A stretch of 64,000 bases of DNA from an uncultured archaeon (GCA_963787445.1 CAWBCT010000005.1:480001-544000); one strand, 5' to 3'; shown: positions 13,236 through 61,096, counted from the stretch's first letter. Numbers and translations are program-made. Notes: generated by a model not told the origin, from the sequence alone.

Positions 13236-13532
13236 TCACTTCGTAAGCGTTATCTCTATGGAGCTTACCTTGGAGATTGTCCCGTCCTCGTTGGAGAGCT
13301 CCTCCGAGTTTATCTCTATCTGGCCGACATGCGTGTCCGTCACGAACCTGTGCCTTGAGATCTCCGCAACATCGACTGCGCGTGAGATTGCATTGCCCCT
13401 TGCACGCACTTTTACGCTCTTTGCGCCGCCGTTGAATTGCGTAACCACCGCAAGCACATAGTTCATCGCTGGCTTCTTGCCTATAAGCACTACATTTTCT
13501 CCAATCGTCGTTGTTTCCATTTCTTCAGCCAT
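13236..13532 (-). CDS. albA: chromatin/RNA-binding protein Alba
   Basis: [32 protein letters not shown]. Confidence 0.97.
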
Positions 13533-54639: not shown

Positions 54640-57072
54640 TCACACCAATCTCTTTTGAGATCCCAATCCCTGCAATTCCTCTTCAGTAACACCAAGTTCC
54701 TTGAGAATCTTAAGCGTTGCGGGTATTATCTGGTGATTTATGTAATAGTCCGCATCGTAATCCTTTGCGAACTCCTCCAACTCTGCCTTATCGGAGATGC
54801 TGCTGCCCGTCTTGGTCACCACATAGCTGATTGTGCTGCCCTCCATCTCCTTCTTGACCTTCTGCCCGCGCGCTATCGCCTTCTTCACAGCAGCGAGCTC
54901 CGGCGATTTGTTGTCATAGCTGTCGATTTTTTTCCTCAACTGGGTCTGTATCACCAGCTCCTTGATGTCCGCCTTGCCTTCCCTAAGCCTCTTTACCACA
55001 TCCTTGACTATGGCTATCGCGCTCTCCTTGGTCCCTGCGTGAAGTATATTCTCCAATACGGCCCTCTGCGTATTTCTGGAGACGGCCGACCAATCCCTTC
55101 TAACAAGTTCAAATCCGCGTATCTTTATCCTTCCTGACTCTGAAAGCAGCGCATACTTCTTCTTTGCACCGGCGTCTACCGCTCCCCTCTTGCCTACAAA
55201 GACCCCGCTGGTGTAAAAATCTTCGAGTTCAAGTTCCATAGAATCCGGAAGTGATTTGTTTACATCGTCAAGGAACTTCTTCGCATCTTCCTTTGTCTTC
55301 TCTCCCCTAAGAAGCATAATCGAATCCGTGTCCCCATAGATCACCCTGAATCCGTGCTTCTCCGCACTCTCCATCGTCCTGTTTATGTACTCTCTGCCGA
55401 AAGCCGTGACGCTCTCAGCGCATTCGCGGGAGTACCAGCGAGACCTCGCATACCCGAGGTAGCCGTAGAACGAGTTCGCTATGATCTTGAGTCCTGTCGA
55501 ACGGGCTGCAAGAGACTTGTTGTCCGGATCCTTCTTGAACGCCTTCTTTATCTCTGATCTCTCCTTAAGCATCAATCTCAGGACGTTGGGGACTATGCCG
55601 AGCGGCTTCTTCCTGAACTTTGCCTTGGTTGGTGATTCAAATACCTCTTCCTTATCGCTGCCCTTGTAAAGAGTTGAAGGGTCAATATTGTATGCGATTA
55701 TTATGGATGGGTACAGGCTCCTGAAGTCAAAGACCACTATGTCCTTGTATATTCCCGCATCCGGCGTCTTTACGTAGGCACCCTCGATAGGGTTGTCGTT
55801 CCTCCAGTTGATGTCCCTGTCGTTTGGCTTGTTCGGTATGAACTCGTTGTTATTATGCGCATAGCGCATCAAAAGATGCTCCACAAGCTGCCCCGTGGTT
55901 GAGATGCACGCCTCGCCCAGCGTTGTCCCTACTATCTTCGAGATTTCCTGCTCCAGCGGCACGAAGAACTTGTAAAGCTCCTCCAGCGCGAACGAGTCTG
56001 CCAGAGAGTAGTCTGCAAGCTCCTCCCTGTCCTTGTCTCCGCCGTCCCAGATCTGCCAGATGTTAAGCCTGTCAACCATCTTCTTCTTGTCTCCTGTTAT
56101 TGCTGCGTAGACCTCGCTAAGCTTGAGGTTGCTCGCCTTTATCAGGTTCTCCGAAGCCCCAACTATGGAGACGAACTTCGCCACGTTGTAAACGTCCACG
56201 TTGACCCTGCCAGGTATCTTCACCATCTGCACAAGCCCGTGGTTCTGCTGCTCCGGCGCGTCCCCATATCTTCCGATGTCGAAGCCGGCCCTGCTCACAT
56301 TTCCGCGCTTCACCATGTAGGGAATATCGAAATTAGAGGAGTTGTAGCCCGCAATCGCGTCAAACTGGCCGTTGTTCACGTACTCCACGAAGTTGCTGAT
56401 CATCGCCTTCTCGCTCTCGAACACCTTGACGAACGGTCTCTTGATCTTCTTCGTTGTAAGCACCGCAGACTCCTTCCCGTCGGTGTAGCTTACCATGATT
56501 ACCGGATCGACCTCTGGCCTGGGCGTCCCTTGGGGGTTGTAGGTCTCAATATCAAAGCAGAGGTGGGTGATCTCCTCCTTCACTGCAGCCGCCGCTGGCC
56601 TGATCTCATCTATGCGGAGCTTCCCGTTCTCTTCATGCGCCGTAACTTCGATGCCGAACAGCGGCGAGAGCTTGTGATCAATCAGATATCTCTTCCAGAA
56701 AAGGATGTCGTACTCGTACCGCTCTCCGAACTCGGCCATCAGCTCGCTGAGCCTGGGAACCTGCCTCGTGCTCTGCACATAAATCCTGAACGCCCTTGTT
56801 GGCGTGCCTTTTAGCGAGAGTTTTTTCTCTTCAACAAGGAAGGGTTTGATTCCGCCCTCCTGGTCGGTCAGCTCCACCTTCTCCAGCGCCTCCTTTGTTA
56901 TGCTCTCGCTGGAGGGTATTATGTAAAAATAAGGCCTAAAATTAAAATCAAAAAGCTGGTAGGCCTTCCCGCCAGCTTTCAGAGTAAGTCTTATGATGCT
57001 TCGTTCACCAACGGGCACGTAGTCTGCGTCAAGCAGGATACCGCTCAGTTTTACGCTGGCATCATGCTCCAT
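54640..57072 (-). CDS. polB: family B DNA polymerase, no intein
   Basis: FDIETY, GYNS..FD, DFRSLYPSII, KIIANSFYGY, YGDTDS, KKKY, VRRDW. Confidence 0.97.
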   Translation of the reverse strand: MEHDASVKLSGILLDADYVPVGERSIIRLTLKAGGKAYQLFDFNFRPYFYIIPSSESITKEALEKVELTDQEGGIKPFLVEEKKLSLKGTPTRAFRIYVQSTRQVPRLSELMAEFGERYEYDILFWKRYLIDHKLSPLFGIEVTAHEENGKLRIDEIRPAAAAVKEEITHLCFDIETYNPQGTPRPEVDPVIMVSYTDGKESAVLTTKKIKRPFVKVFESEKAMISNFVEYVNNGQFDAIAGYNSSNFDIPYMVKRGNVSRAGFDIGRYGDAPEQQNHGLVQMVKIPGRVNVDVYNVAKFVSIVGASENLIKASNLKLSEVYAAITGDKKKMVDRLNIWQIWDGGDKDREELADYSLADSFALEELYKFFVPLEQEISKIVGTTLGEACISTTGQLVEHLLMRYAHNNNEFIPNKPNDRDINWRNDNPIEGAYVKTPDAGIYKDIVVFDFRSLYPSIIIAYNIDPSTLYKGSDKEEVFESPTKAKFRKKPLGIVPNVLRLMLKERSEIKKAFKKDPDNKSLAARSTGLKIIANSFYGYLGYARSRWYSRECAESVTAFGREYINRTMESAEKHGFRVIYGDTDSIMLLRGEKTKEDAKKFLDDVNKSLPDSMELELEDFYTSGVFVGKRGAVDAGAKKKYALLSESGRIKIRGFELVRRDWSAVSRNTQRAVLENILHAGTKESAIAIVKDVVKRLREGKADIKELVIQTQLRKKIDSYDNKSPELAAVKKAIARGQKVKKEMEGSTISYVVTKTGSSISDKAELEEFAKDYDADYYINHQIIPATLKILKELGVTEEELQGLGSQKRLV

Positions 57073-57088
57073 AAGCTCCCCTAGGGGC

Positions 57089-57508
57089 TCACTGCGCCCT
57101 TGCGTTAGGGGTGTTTTCCTGCAGCTTGGCCCTTGAGATCGGGAGCGGTGCAGGGAAGCCCATCGAGTAGGCTACCAGAGTTCCGCGAGCACCGCACTCA
57201 AAGTTGAGCAGGTTTATCACGTCCTCTGCAAACTTTAGAGGCAAGGTCTTCTTGCTCTTCCAGACAGACTCTATCTCCTCAGCATCCTTCTTTGACTCCT
57301 TTGCGAGTATGTCACCCTGAAGTGTAAGCTCGCCAACCTTTGCCGACTTGGTGCCTTCGTACACTGCCACGAACGTGAAACCCACTGTGACGTTCTCCTG
57401 CGAGACCTTCACATTCTCGAAGTTTATGTTAAACTTCATGTTTCCAATCAGTTCGCCGTTCGGCTCACGCTTAGCTTCTACTTTCTGCATATCCACTCCT
57501 GTTATCAT
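57089..57508 (-). CDS. conserved hypothetical protein upstream of polB
   Basis: Co-oriented with polB; C-terminal PAPLP. Confidence 0.7.
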   Translation of the reverse strand: MITGVDMQKVEAKREPNGELIGNMKFNINFENVKVSQENVTVGFTFVAVYEGTKSAKVGELTLQGDILAKESKKDAEEIESVWKSKKTLPLKFAEDVINLLNFECGARGTLVAYSMGFPAPLPISRAKLQENTPNARAQ

Positions 57509-57648
57509 ACACTCACGTCTAATATTTTCAAGATATATATCGTGCGTTTACTATAAAATACTTGTTATTTGGAACGTTTAATCGCCAAAAACTTTTACTT
57601 GATAGTGCAATTGGCTAGCGTAAGGTTTAAGAACTATCTATCTTCAAT

Positions 57649-58089
57649 ATGAAATATGCGCAGCATGGGGTTGGTGGCATTCCAGGCAAGGCTATAGTCA
57701 ACAACTGCGTCCATTTTATTTCAGAAGTCAAACGCATCTCCAGCAAGACAGAACTCTCCCAGCAGGAATCTGAAATAAAGGAAACAGCCTGGGTCGTCGC
57801 CTCACTATCCTCTAACCATTCCTGGAAAACCTACAAGTACCTGCACCATGATGGCGAGTTTGACAATGAGGCGTTTGTTGGTGAGACCGGATATGCCCTG
57901 AAGGAAGGCTGGAAAAATATAAGTGAGTCCGACTACGCCGAAGTTAAAAACAAACTTCCCAAGGATCATCTGCTCAACCGCTGGAAGCAGTATGCTCTTG
58001 ACGAAAAACACCGCAATAGGTTCAGCCAGTTATACAACAAGTTCCAAAAGGAGCAGGCCTACGAGCTCCAGCCGGAGACGCAGCGGTAG
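57649..58089 (+). CDS. hypothetical protein (orphan)
   Basis: 146-aa ORF with an upstream TTTAAG element; no recognisable motif. Confidence 0.55.
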   Translation: MKYAQHGVGGIPGKAIVNNCVHFISEVKRISSKTELSQQESEIKETAWVVASLSSNHSWKTYKYLHHDGEFDNEAFVGETGYALKEGWKNISESDYAEVKNKLPKDHLLNRWKQYALDEKHRNRFSQLYNKFQKEQAYELQPETQR

Positions 58090-58137
58090 TCTTCTACTCT
58101 TATTATTCCTTTGTTTCCCAATAACTACTACGGCCAA

Positions 58138-58212
58138 GGGCATGTGGCGTAACTTGGATAGCGCATCGGGCTTCGGACCCGAGGGTTGCGGGTTCAAATC
58201 CCGCCATGCCCA
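58138..58212 (+). tRNA. tRNA-Arg(TCG)
   Basis: GGGCATG/CATGCCC acceptor stem, anticodon arm TCGGG-CTTCGGA-CCCGA, T-arm GCGGGTTCAAATCCCGC. Confidence 0.93.
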
Positions 58213-58220
58213 GTCATCAT

Positions 58221-59591
58221 TCAGATTGGTTTTATAATTATTCTACAATTTCTACTACCACAACTGCACTTCATAGAATCTCCAGGCACCATTGTTTCTG
58301 AATAGTTTGCAGTTATCTCCTCACCCTTCTTGATATTTCTGTTTGCAACATCACAGAAATCATCTGCATGCGTATTTGCACTGCACGAATGGTTAACGTA
58401 TCTCTCTGGAGAACCCATCACAATGTTCTTTCCTTGATAACAAATAACATGACGCTTAGCCTCATCAGATAACAAGTTTAATTCTGCATTGGTCAGTTGC
58501 TTAGATGTGTGCCATCTAGTAACAATTTCCCCTTCCTTAAAATCTCTAGCTGCAAATAACCCCTTCCCTTCTATTTTAGATTTTTTAACCGCAAAAGATT
58601 GATCGCCTGACTCTTCGCGTAACTTTAGCCTAATCGGCTTGGACATCCTACTTATTTCATCGTCCATTGATTTCTTGTATTCAGGATCAGTCTTGCTAAG
58701 TCTCCTGAGATGCCCATTCTCAAGGAATTTGGGATCAACATAGCGCGTCTTCCCGTGCACCGTTATCTCACCATCTTCAGAAAATGAGAACTCCAGGGGA
58801 CCTCCAGCCCTGTCTAGCATGACGTTAAGCTTGGCATCTCCAGCCTTCCTGAGAAAGGCTGTGATTTCCTCATCTGTACCATACATACCATCGTGCGTTA
58901 TGATACCCGTACTCGCTGCGTACCTCAGCGCCTCACCAAGAAGATGATATCTCAACATATGCTCTGGCGCTGCCCAGTTCTTGATCTGGAAGTCTAGGTA
59001 CATCCTCCCAAAGGCCTTCGCTGCTGCTTTTGAATCGAAGACAATTTCACCATTGTAAACCTTTAGGGAATTGAGGCACAGCTTTACCTCTTCGCGGTAC
59101 CTCATAAGTCCCTCCCTGAGGGTATAATCCACTCTGTCGCCGCAAAGATCCGGCGAAGGCCTTTCCAGTAATCCATATTTGCCGCTCGACTCAGCAGTGC
59201 TTATCTCATGTACATCGAAACCGTTCCTGCTTATAATCTTTCCAAGCTCTGAATTCTTTATGTATTGCTCAAGGTTCTTGTCCTGGTAGTCACTCTTTCT
59301 CGGGTCGCCGAACGCCCAGTCAACCGTGTGCGAGAAAGCGGTGTGAGAGGCGTCGTGTATAAGTCCTGCAATTTGCTCTGCAAATGGCGCACCGAGCCTC
59401 CTGAGCAGCAGCATCACTCCCACACTGTGCTCGTATCTTGAGAAATTCATTGTGTTTTCAGTTTTCGTATTGGGCAGGAGGCCATGCTGAAACACACCCT
59501 TCAGTCTTTGCATGGGTGCAGAGTTTATCAGCTCCACTAGAACCTTCTCGTTTACCTCAACGGAACCGTAAACTTCATCTTTAATTAACAA
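58221..59591 (-). CDS. HD-domain phosphohydrolase fused to a SET/post-SET methyltransferase domain
   Basis: HD: RLKG..Q, RYEHS.G, IHDASH..FSH, DRVDY. SET: GKGLFA.RDF.EGE, RYVNHSC..N, GEEIT.NY, C.CGS..C. Confidence 0.88.
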   Translation of the reverse strand: MLIKDEVYGSVEVNEKVLVELINSAPMQRLKGVFQHGLLPNTKTENTMNFSRYEHSVGVMLLLRRLGAPFAEQIAGLIHDASHTAFSHTVDWAFGDPRKSDYQDKNLEQYIKNSELGKIISRNGFDVHEISTAESSGKYGLLERPSPDLCGDRVDYTLREGLMRYREEVKLCLNSLKVYNGEIVFDSKAAAKAFGRMYLDFQIKNWAAPEHMLRYHLLGEALRYAASTGIITHDGMYGTDEEITAFLRKAGDAKLNVMLDRAGGPLEFSFSEDGEITVHGKTRYVDPKFLENGHLRRLSKTDPEYKKSMDDEISRMSKPIRLKLREESGDQSFAVKKSKIEGKGLFAARDFKEGEIVTRWHTSKQLTNAELNLLSDEAKRHVICYQGKNIVMGSPERYVNHSCSANTHADDFCDVANRNIKKGEEITANYSETMVPGDSMKCSCGSRNCRIIIKPI

Positions 59592-59626
59592 GAGATCACC
59601 ACTGCCTGCTGCCTTAAGTATAAAAT

Positions 59627-61096
59627 TTATGAAGAGAGCATCCTGTTCAGCGCCGGGTAGCTGTCGAACATGTGCTCCTGCTCAAGCTGCTGGTACACCC
59701 CGTACATTATTCCCGCAGTCAGGAGGATTCCCATCCCGTTTCCGATCGCGCCGCTCAGTGTTGCGAACGCCGCAAGCAGACCCACGAAGATGCTGCCAAG
59801 CACCGTAACTGTTGGCAGGTACTTGTCTAGCACGCTCTGGATCATCCTCGGGTCGCGCCTGAAGCCGGGTATCTGCCACCCTACGTCCTGAAGCTGCTCA
59901 GAGACCGCCTTCGAGTTCTGCCCGGTCATCTCGACCCAGAACTTTCCGAAGACGATACAAAGTATGACCAGTATTATAGCATATATTATAAAGTGCACCC
60001 ACTCCGGTATCAAGAGCGGAGCTCCGCCCCAGGGCGGATACAACGGCGAGGTCTGGCTCTCCAGGACATAGATGTAGTTGCTGTAGCCGCCCACCCCATT
60101 GTATTTGGTGGAGTAAGGGAGATAGCCCAGCGGCTGCATGAGGTAGACAACGCCTCCGGTGAGGATCTGGCTGGTGCCGCCGGTTGAGGAGGTCTGGTTG
60201 GTGTAATAGGCGAAGAAGCTCACGATGTTGCCTGCGGCGCCACCGTGCACCGTGGCAAAGATCCTGAGCCAGACGCTGAGGCTTACCGTAAGCGAGGTGG
60301 CCAGGATGACCGGGAGCACGCTCACATACAGGAACGGGATGGGCAGCCGGCCTCCCACGCCCCTGAACTGGCTGAACACGAGGGGAAGCTCAATCTTCAT
60401 GTCAAGCACATAGATGCTGATCAGGAAGACGATCATGGCGAAGAAGAGCGGGCCGAAGTCAAGGATCATCTGCGGAATTGCTGTTGCCCCGCCCGATGCG
60501 AGCGAGGTCAAGGCCTCCGGGATGAGTATGTTGCCTGTTCCCGCGACTATGGCGTAGGCGACCCCGCCGGCTATGAACAGGTTTATTCCAGAGGTGATGC
60601 CGTACTTGGTCATCATCTCGTCAAGGTAGATGATTATTATCGCACTTACCGCAAGCTGGGCTGCGACCACTCCGAAGTACGCGGGGCTTGTGAGGACCAC
60701 GGTGGTCGATGTGAAGATCGTCGCCTCAATGATGGCGATGACTATCGCCGCAAGCTTCTGGATGCTCTGCATCCTGGACTTCTGGGCCGGGTCGTTCATG
60801 TCTATCTTCAGGACGCCCGCCCCCTGGAGCATCTGGAGTATGATGCTCGATAGCACAATCGGCCCGATACCGACAGTCACCAACGTGCCTATGCGTGCCG
60901 CGAAGATAGTGTTTATTACTGCGAACAGCGGGCTGTTGAGCGCCGCAATGTTCACTCCGAACGCCGGAGTGCTGAACATAACGAAATAGACCGCTATGAC
61001 GATTGCCGTCCACTTCAGCTTCTCCCTGAACGTAAGCGGCCCAAGGGGGCTCTTAATGTTCGGTATGAAGTTCAGGATCGTGTCAAGTATCGACAT
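59627..61096 (-). CDS. secY: protein translocase subunit SecY
   Basis: KLKWT, GIGPIV, SGINLFIA, QIPGFR.DP, GILLT. Confidence 0.95.
   Translation of the reverse strand: MSILDTILNFIPNIKSPLGPLTFREKLKWTAIVIAVYFVMFSTPAFGVNIAALNSPLFAVINTIFAARIGTLVTVGIGPIVLSSIILQMLQGAGVLKIDMNDPAQKSRMQSIQKLAAIVIAIIEATIFTSTTVVLTSPAYFGVVAAQLAVSAIIIIYLDEMMTKYGITSGINLFIAGGVAYAIVAGTGNILIPEALTSLASGGATAIPQMILDFGPLFFAMIVFLISIYVLDMKIELPLVFSQFRGVGGRLPIPFLYVSVLPVILATSLTVSLSVWLRIFATVHGGAAGNIVSFFAYYTNQTSSTGGTSQILTGGVVYLMQPLGYLPYSTKYNGVGGYSNYIYVLESQTSPLYPPWGGAPLLIPEWVHFIIYAIILVILCIVFGKFWVEMTGQNSKAVSEQLQDVGWQIPGFRRDPRMIQSVLDKYLPTVTVLGSIFVGLLAAFATLSGAIGNGMGILLTAGIMYGVYQQLEQEHMFDSYPALNRMLSS

Follow-up and report, generated by a model that had tools for sequence, protein, structure and literature searches.

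A probable recent fusion of an HD phosphohydrolase gene with a captured SET methyltransferase gene beside a tRNA gene in an uncultured archaeon

The HD-domain enzymes EF1143 of Enterococcus faecalis and human SAMHD1 are deoxynucleoside triphosphate (dNTP) triphosphohydrolases. In the 64,000-nucleotide (nt) stretch of an uncultured archaeon's genome analyzed here (GCA_963787445.1, CAWBCT010000005.1:480001-544000; "the window"), a single open reading frame (ORF) at 58221..59591 on the minus strand joins a domain of this type to a SET lysine methyltransferase domain. The one characterized archaeal SET protein, Go1-SET of Methanosarcina mazei, is a small prokaryotic enzyme for which a review reports methylation of MC1-alpha, a chromatin protein, probably at Lys37, and of K5 of histone H4 in vitro (PMC3980110). 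We liken the SET half of our ORF to Go1-SET by description and not by sequence, and it differs in being fused to an HD enzyme. Among solved structures, the best matches to residues 324-452 are the SET and post-SET domains of the KMT2/MLL proteins KMT2D (1.3e-9), KMT2C (∼5e-8), and KMT2A (∼1e-7), whose NHSC, ELxxDY-type, and CxCx4C motifs align with those of the window's SET. Unlike the KMT2/MLL proteins, the archaeal module makes up the whole methyltransferase in 122 amino acids (aa), without WDR5/RbBP5-type partners and without flanking domains. We found this HD-SET architecture in one lineage only and estimate a probability of roughly 70% that it is a genuine, recent, lineage-specific fusion, in which an HD gene came to be read into captured low-GC SET DNA and the two domains work independently.

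The ORF runs uninterrupted for 456 aa from a TTG start to a TGA stop (58221-58223) with zero internal stop codons, and its N terminus lines up with the beginning of stand-alone HD homologs. It divides into an EF1143/SAMHD1-type HD phosphohydrolase half (residues 1-324; 58620..59591), supported by Pfam HD, PDB sequence matches, a structural model, and Foldseek; a linker, REESGDQSFA, that includes AGGCGATC (residues 325-334; 58590..58619), supported by alignment, a change in base composition, and low model confidence; and a SET plus post-SET lysine methyltransferase half (residues 335-456; 58224..58589). The Pfam SET match is strong (50.1 bits against a cut-off of 22.4, E 4e-13) and spans residues 342-430, corresponding to profile positions 1-104 of 105. 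The Pfam HD match at residues 52-97 is borderline (22.6 bits against a cut-off of 22, E 1.3e-4). Upstream, the start lies 35 nt downstream of secY on the same strand, and at the other end 8 nt separate the stop from a convergent tRNA-Arg(TCG) gene, whose 3′ end faces it. An intact 456-aa HD-SET ORF ending at this distance from the tRNA had been described in an earlier, sequence-only reading of the window, and the ORF and tRNA coordinates confirm it.

To place the HD half, we relied on both its motifs and its fold. The translation contains RYEH(55)S, LIH(79)D(80)ASH(83)TAFSH(88), and D(152)RVD(155)Y, and the putative metal ligands H55, H79, D80, and D152 are invariant in 66 relatives. A 67-sequence alignment has 17 invariant columns, among them those of H55, H79, D80, H88, D152, Y156, and R159, and the HD half keeps every one. 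In alignment A2, 58 of the 67 columns conserved at 85% or above are kept; six of the nine misses are misaligned columns, and the remaining three are real and conservative. An AlphaFold model of the HD half was built from an HD-only alignment, A2 having placed HD C termini onto SET columns. It has a mean predicted local distance difference test score (pLDDT) of 95.2 and a predicted template modeling score of 0.93, and describes a compact unit that ends in a strand at residues 320-324 followed by a disordered tail. Foldseek placed EF1143 nearest to this model (probability 1.00, E ∼1e-11, template modeling (TM) score 0.72-0.76), followed by 2HEK, BT4208, and SAMHD1, while sequence matches to the PDB ranked 2HEK (4e-10) ahead of EF1143 (6e-7) and SAMHD1 (0.005). 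Taken together, the model and the Foldseek result support the sequence-only assignment of this half to the SAMHD1/dNTPase type.

Both EF1143 (PDB 2O6I/3IRH/4LRL) and SAMHD1 (TM 0.5-0.64) share with the HD half the fold, the H...HD...D metal site, and the DxxDYxxR motif. They differ from it in length, with chains of 430-480 aa that make the 324-aa HD half ∼110-150 residues shorter, and sequence identity to structures of this type is 13-21% (17% to EF1143 itself). The best match among solved sequences, O67745 of Aquifex aeolicus (PDB 2HEK; E 4e-10 over residues 4-188, all motifs aligned), is closer in size at 371 aa and has a TM score of 0.62; it is an HD protein without an assigned function and adds no mechanism.

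A search with the whole protein against proteins of 250-798 aa returned 312 matches at E≤1e-3 to stand-alone HD homologs of ∼324 aa, which share their start with the ORF and end 1-3 residues past the position of "KPIRLKL". The 120 HD matches listed consist of the window's own protein and 119 other HD proteins, the best of the latter 58% identical. These 119 comprise 114 with HD alone, two without a precomputed Pfam entry, two with NUDIX, and one with NUDIX and NT5C. In the HD tree, the HD half falls in a clade with all 10 HD genes sampled from its own phylum (Shimodaira-Hasegawa-like approximate likelihood ratio test support 98) and pairs with the 58%-identical P0003 (support 99). Fusions of the HD family elsewhere take the forms NUDIX-HD (P0029, P0279, L127), NUDIX-NT5C-HD (P0068), and HD joined to the DNA polymerase D small subunit, DP1-HD (L126). 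Since NUDIX and NT5C deoxynucleotidase partners fit a role in (deoxy)nucleotide turnover, the fold and the fusion partners suggest that the HD half most likely hydrolyzes (deoxy)nucleoside phosphates in nucleotide-pool housekeeping. The genes neighboring HD-SET are housekeeping genes. A link to antiviral defense had also been proposed, but the protein matched no NCBIfam family, 0 PADLOC families at E≤0.01, and 0 PHROGs; thus, nothing connects the HD half to phage defense.

The SET half carries all of the elements expected of a complete domain. Its translation contains G342xG344, N400-H401-S-C403 (58383-58394, minus strand), EEITANY(430), and a post-SET cluster C442xC444xxxxC449 (58245-58268, minus strand), and so the earlier claim of a complete SET domain holds. 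In such domains the GxG forms the turn that binds S-adenosylmethionine (SAM), the Tyr of EEITxxY is catalytic, and CxCx4C is the post-SET zinc cluster. The columns of G342, G344, N400, H401, C403, and Y430 are invariant or at least 94% conserved among 34-35 stand-alone relatives, and C442, C444, and C449 do not vary across the family alignment and line up with the post-SET of KMT2D. Of the family columns conserved at 85% or above, 43 of 47 are kept, the four differences lying outside the named motifs.

Stand-alone SET relatives turned out to be common. We found 355 of 70-226 aa at E≤1e-3; the best 120 of the 355 all carry Pfam SET and are 124-199 aa long, the top two being 74% and 71% identical to the window's SET. 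They are named from Woese-, Pace-, Nano-, and Micrarchaeota and from Diapherotrites. In genomes taken one per species, 537 of 601 candidate SET stretches were confirmed, many of them in bacteria of the Candidate Phyla Radiation (CPR). The named homologs of both halves come from DPANN archaea and CPR bacteria, where a stand-alone SET is typically 125-135 aa. The sequence-only reading had started from the premise that SET proteins are sparse in archaea, and these counts correct it, since this small SET plus post-SET family is widespread in DPANN and CPR genomes. Our literature searches found no paper on the small DPANN SET plus post-SET family.

The partners of the window's SET in a tree of 36 sequences are P0126 (135 aa) and P0127 (130 aa), both stand-alone and 72-74% identical to it; the three make up a clade supported at 100/100. 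A stand-alone 128-aa SET from the same genus (G010, L008:3-951) is 52-54% identical and falls outside this clade. That gene adjoins a partial DDE transposase (Pfam DDE_Tnp_1_5) as well as a peptidyl-tRNA-hydrolase-like gene; its position beside the transposase fragment is consistent with mobile SET genes in the group. In the separate domain trees that had been proposed as a check, the HD half groups with its own phylum and the SET half nests among stand-alone SETs.

By analogy with the Methanosarcina enzyme, which methylates MC1-alpha, the SET half probably methylates lysines on small basic DNA-binding proteins. The candidate substrates are the products of one Alba gene, at 13323-13496 of the window, and of three histone-fold genes, at C11:31988-32155, C5:634067-634234, and C5:336630-336809 of the source genome.

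The two halves differ sharply in base composition. Codons 1-324 have a GC content of 47.8% and a GC content at third codon positions (GC3) of 54%, while codons 335-456 have 37.2% and 31%, respectively, bearing out the earlier remark that the SET part is AT-richer. Only 3.2% of genome windows of equal length have a GC content as low as that of the SET half. By maximum likelihood, GC3 shifts after codon 329, within the linker; the eight best positions lie at codons 319-330, and the observed likelihood ratio was not matched in any of 2000 permutations. At the same place, the HD-only model loses confidence (pLDDT 42 for residues 331-334 and below 50 for residues 330-334). The linker exceeds by only a few codons the natural HD end and the natural SET start taken together. 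Many of the close SET relatives are in genomes of 30-45% GC. The composition break, the GC3 change point, and the SET tree together support the earlier proposal of a recent fusion with a captured SET gene.

The linker contains the string AGGCGATC, which had been read as a decayed Shine-Dalgarno sequence. In the source genome, 15 of the 179 GGTGATC occurrences precede the start of an ORF of 80 or more codons; the heptamer is thus no commoner before starts than the control heptamers GGCGATC (32/258) and GGTGACC (31/178). Moreover, when stand-alone SETs are aligned with the ORF, their initial Met coincides with G329/D330 and so lies within the motif, not 3′ of it. On these heptamer counts and this alignment, we rejected the reading of AGGCGATC as a Shine-Dalgarno relic. 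The frame also lacks an ATG, GTG, or TTG between codons 316 and 373, which implies that a complete SET domain can be produced only within the fusion.

We then asked how widely the two domains occur together. In the HD search against proteins of 250-798 aa, SET was present in 0 of the other 119 matches listed. The SET-region search in the same size range gave five matches: the protein itself, two class I methyltransferase-SET proteins with the domains in both orders, a kinase-SET protein, and a tandem SET. With phmmer, we scanned 1.84 billion cluster representatives, one per 50%-identity cluster, and obtained 3162 matches, the best 150 of which all cover the HD part alone in one stretch; a fused relative would score from both halves and would be expected to rank high. 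Across 41 relatives and 401 genomes of the phylum, residues 1-456 were matched only by the window's own genome among the matches listed, and in the 401-genome search, which sorts matches by E-value, a two-domain match would stand at the top. Both tallies include two unpublished genomes (G038 and G214), and nothing specific depends on either. The same absence extends to gene neighborhoods, as an HD homolog was found within 4 kb of 0 of 80 SET loci and a SET homolog within 3 kb of 0 of 80 HD loci, 67 of the latter having at least 500 nt past the HD gene. In phylum genomes having both families, HD and SET lie on separate contigs. A metagenome scan with the whole HD-SET protein gave no match, the ESM Atlas no usable match, and literature searches on the HD-SET architecture nothing relevant. 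The proposed search for HD plus SET architectures thus yielded no second fusion among the listed best matches of three word-indexed protein searches, the clusters, or the genomes: HD-SET is a new domain combination, made from two known and common parts and seen in one lineage only.

Some matches appeared to pass residue 324 (in G078, G343, G196, and G136). The one locus inspected, in G078, holds a 331-aa stand-alone HD gene followed by an unrelated gene, the apparent extension crossing stop codons, and we rejected it as a fusion. An apparent long HD fusion in L124 likewise resolved into two genes. Fusions of either family to other partners do exist. Besides those of HD given above, the SET family occurs in methyltransferase-SET (P0122), SET-methyltransferase (P0123), APH-type kinase-SET (P0124), and tandem SET (P0125) proteins. 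None is HD-SET, and every partner of HD is a nucleotide or replication enzyme, unlike SET. Some bacterial SET loci (among L085, L107-L109, L113, and L115) have 190-380 additional codons upstream of SET in the same open frame.

Sequence support for the junction comes from contigs made with a different assembler. The contigs that cross the region derive from four runs of one study, at ∼3-8× coverage. The junction at 58590-58619 is bridged without an insertion or deletion by short contigs of two samples, an X1 contig (58496-59201) with zero differences and an X4 contig (58480-58949) with one difference, and so the sequence across ∼58600, for which spanning data had been proposed as a check, shows no break. 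Records in NCBI, Logan, and ENA contain the identical 456-aa product, on four contigs. The runs listed as carrying the stretch include none of RNA. Two variants were seen within the HD half: a G>T change at 58909 in the X4 contig, which gives T228K, and a C>T change at 59317 in an X3 contig of depth 4.1, which turns W92 (TGG) into a TAG stop.

The tRNA-Arg gene (58138-58212, plus strand) and secY (59627..61096, minus strand; Pfam SecY 2.9e-51) form the two edges of a slot (58213-59626) whose content varies within the genus. Four genomes of the same genus keep secY (75-77% identical), the tRNA-Arg at the syntenic place (92-96% identical), and two genes without a Pfam family on the far side of the tRNA, a 146-aa gene (57649-58089) and a 139-aa gene (57089-57508). 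The DNA of the latter two is 65-71% identical in same-genus genomes. In G003, G005, and G006, the tRNA side and secY are on one contig, and the 1.8-3.5 kb between them holds other genes: membrane proteins and a NUDIX hydrolase in G003, membrane proteins in G005, and an amino-acid permease in G006 (loci L033, L034, and L035). In G001, the tRNA-side genes and secY are on different contigs, and a different gene follows secY. Across the 10 other genomes of the genus (58-94% complete), the HD family was found in none and the SET family in only two. We considered an integrated element at the tRNA and rejected it, finding that the tRNA 3′ end is not directly repeated in 57000-60500 and that the neighbors of HD-SET include no integrase or transposase; we keep the term "variable slot" alone. 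We also excluded from the counts a frameshifted HD-like remnant in the bin of G004, another genome of the genus (L027, C5:136500-142500). Its contig is GC-rich, has long overlapping frames on both strands, and looks foreign to the genus (bacterial).

The reading that we favor, a recent fusion by capture, would run as follows. An HD gene with a product of ∼324 aa would have resided beside tRNA-Arg in the variable slot. Foreign low-GC DNA of ∼0.4 kb, carrying a small SET plus post-SET gene, would then have inserted between the HD gene and the tRNA 3′ end. With loss of the HD stop codon, reading would have continued in frame into the SET DNA. The predicted product is a single chain of two folded domains, with intact catalytic residues in each, joined by a 10-residue flexible linker, and the two would act independently, HD as a metal-dependent hydrolase of (deoxy)nucleotides and SET methylating lysines using SAM. 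If so, the locus offers a clean case of the birth of a multidomain protein in ultra-small archaea, through a foreign gene landing beside a tRNA and an in-frame read-through from its neighbor, with the scar in composition still visible at the join. Several points weigh against this account. The Pfam HD score is barely over its cut-off. A fused member inside an HD-only 50%-identity cluster could have escaped the phmmer scan. All four runs belong to a single study, possibly with the source sample among them, so that the contigs are not independent of the assembly and check the assembler rather than the biology. The W92 stop may mean that the HD half is broken in part of the population, or it may be a low-depth error. 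Lastly, "recent" is based on composition, and the nearest SETs are only 72-74% identical.

The W92 stop also lends itself to the view that the gene is a decaying accident, a read-through product that is tolerated, unused, effectively non-functional, and heading for loss. Both families appear dispensable in the genus, HD having been found in none and SET in only two of the 10 other genomes, and the gene sits in a variable slot. However, the nonsense call is a single contig at a depth of 4.1, while the reference ORF is intact across 456 codons, and the conserved columns of both halves are largely kept (58/67 and 43/47, with the HD misses mostly misaligned and otherwise conservative, and 17/17 in the cleaner alignment). 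We regard decay as unlikely. An error of assembly or binning, in which a chimeric contig or a missed base joined two genes, would account for a sharp composition break exactly at the junction, and the low coverage and the state of the genome (82% complete, 5.4% contamination) leave room for one. Yet two short contigs from another assembler and two samples cross the junction with no indel, the exact protein is on record from three sources, and both flanks, tRNA-Arg and secY, are syntenic with the genus, which makes an artefact the least probable of the readings, and a highly improbable one.

The opposite view takes the fusion to be an adaptive bifunctional enzyme, its tether selected for coupling, for example, because SET methylates HD or a shared partner, or because HD recruits SET to DNA, the replisome, or chromatin. 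It draws on the retention of every conserved catalytic residue in both domains, on the tolerance of the SET family for N-terminal partners elsewhere (such as the methyltransferase of P0122), and on the histones and Alba as candidate substrates; in addition, a sister clade within the HD family is embedded in the operon of DNA polymerase D (PolD), described below, so that a link to DNA transactions is conceivable. Comparative evidence goes the other way. The fusion is a singleton in all searches, the reciprocal neighborhood tests gave 0/80 and 0/80, HD and SET are on separate contigs in the phylum genomes having both, the SET DNA retains a composition unlike that of the host genome, one allele may be nonsense, and the window's HD lies outside the PolD-linked clade. 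We consider selection for coupling unlikely, and its more specific form, in which nucleotide-pool sensing or replisome proximity would direct histone or Alba methylation, or SET would regulate HD by methylation, very unlikely. That form, if true, would connect dNTP control with chromatin marking in a prokaryote. Should the two activities prove coupled, nucleotide metabolism and protein methylation would be connected in a way that is new, but nothing that we found points there, and the functional link between hydrolysis and methylation put forward in the sequence-only reading finds no comparative support in the singleton status and the two neighborhood tests.

In examining HD loci, we came upon a recurrent arrangement with PolD. 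The large subunit gene DP2 directly follows the HD gene in 21 of the 80 metagenome HD loci (within L117-L184 of L116-L195), and in 19 of those 21 the small subunit gene DP1 also precedes it, as in L124:1385-6905. In one locus (L126:1393-6911), HD is fused to the C terminus of DP1 in an 852-aa protein, and in another (L127), a NUDIX-HD fusion lies between DP1 and DP2. The PolD-linked loci fall within a single subgroup of the HD tree (31 rows; support 89), apart from the clade of the window's HD, and in the window's genome DP1 directly adjoins DP2, with no intervening HD gene. Our literature search found no paper naming DP1, DP2, and an HD domain in archaea together.

The source genome is 1.05 Mb in 19 contigs with 52.9% GC, and its relatives have genomes of 0.6-1.8 Mb. 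Between secY and HD-SET, at 59610..59626 on the minus strand and ∼19-35 nt upstream of the TTG start, lies a promoter-like ATTTTATA element that belongs to a repeat family in the window. It may be an archaeal TATA box, which would imply short or absent leaders. A similar ATTTTATA-containing element occurs at 57543-57559, at a comparable distance upstream of the 139-aa gene.

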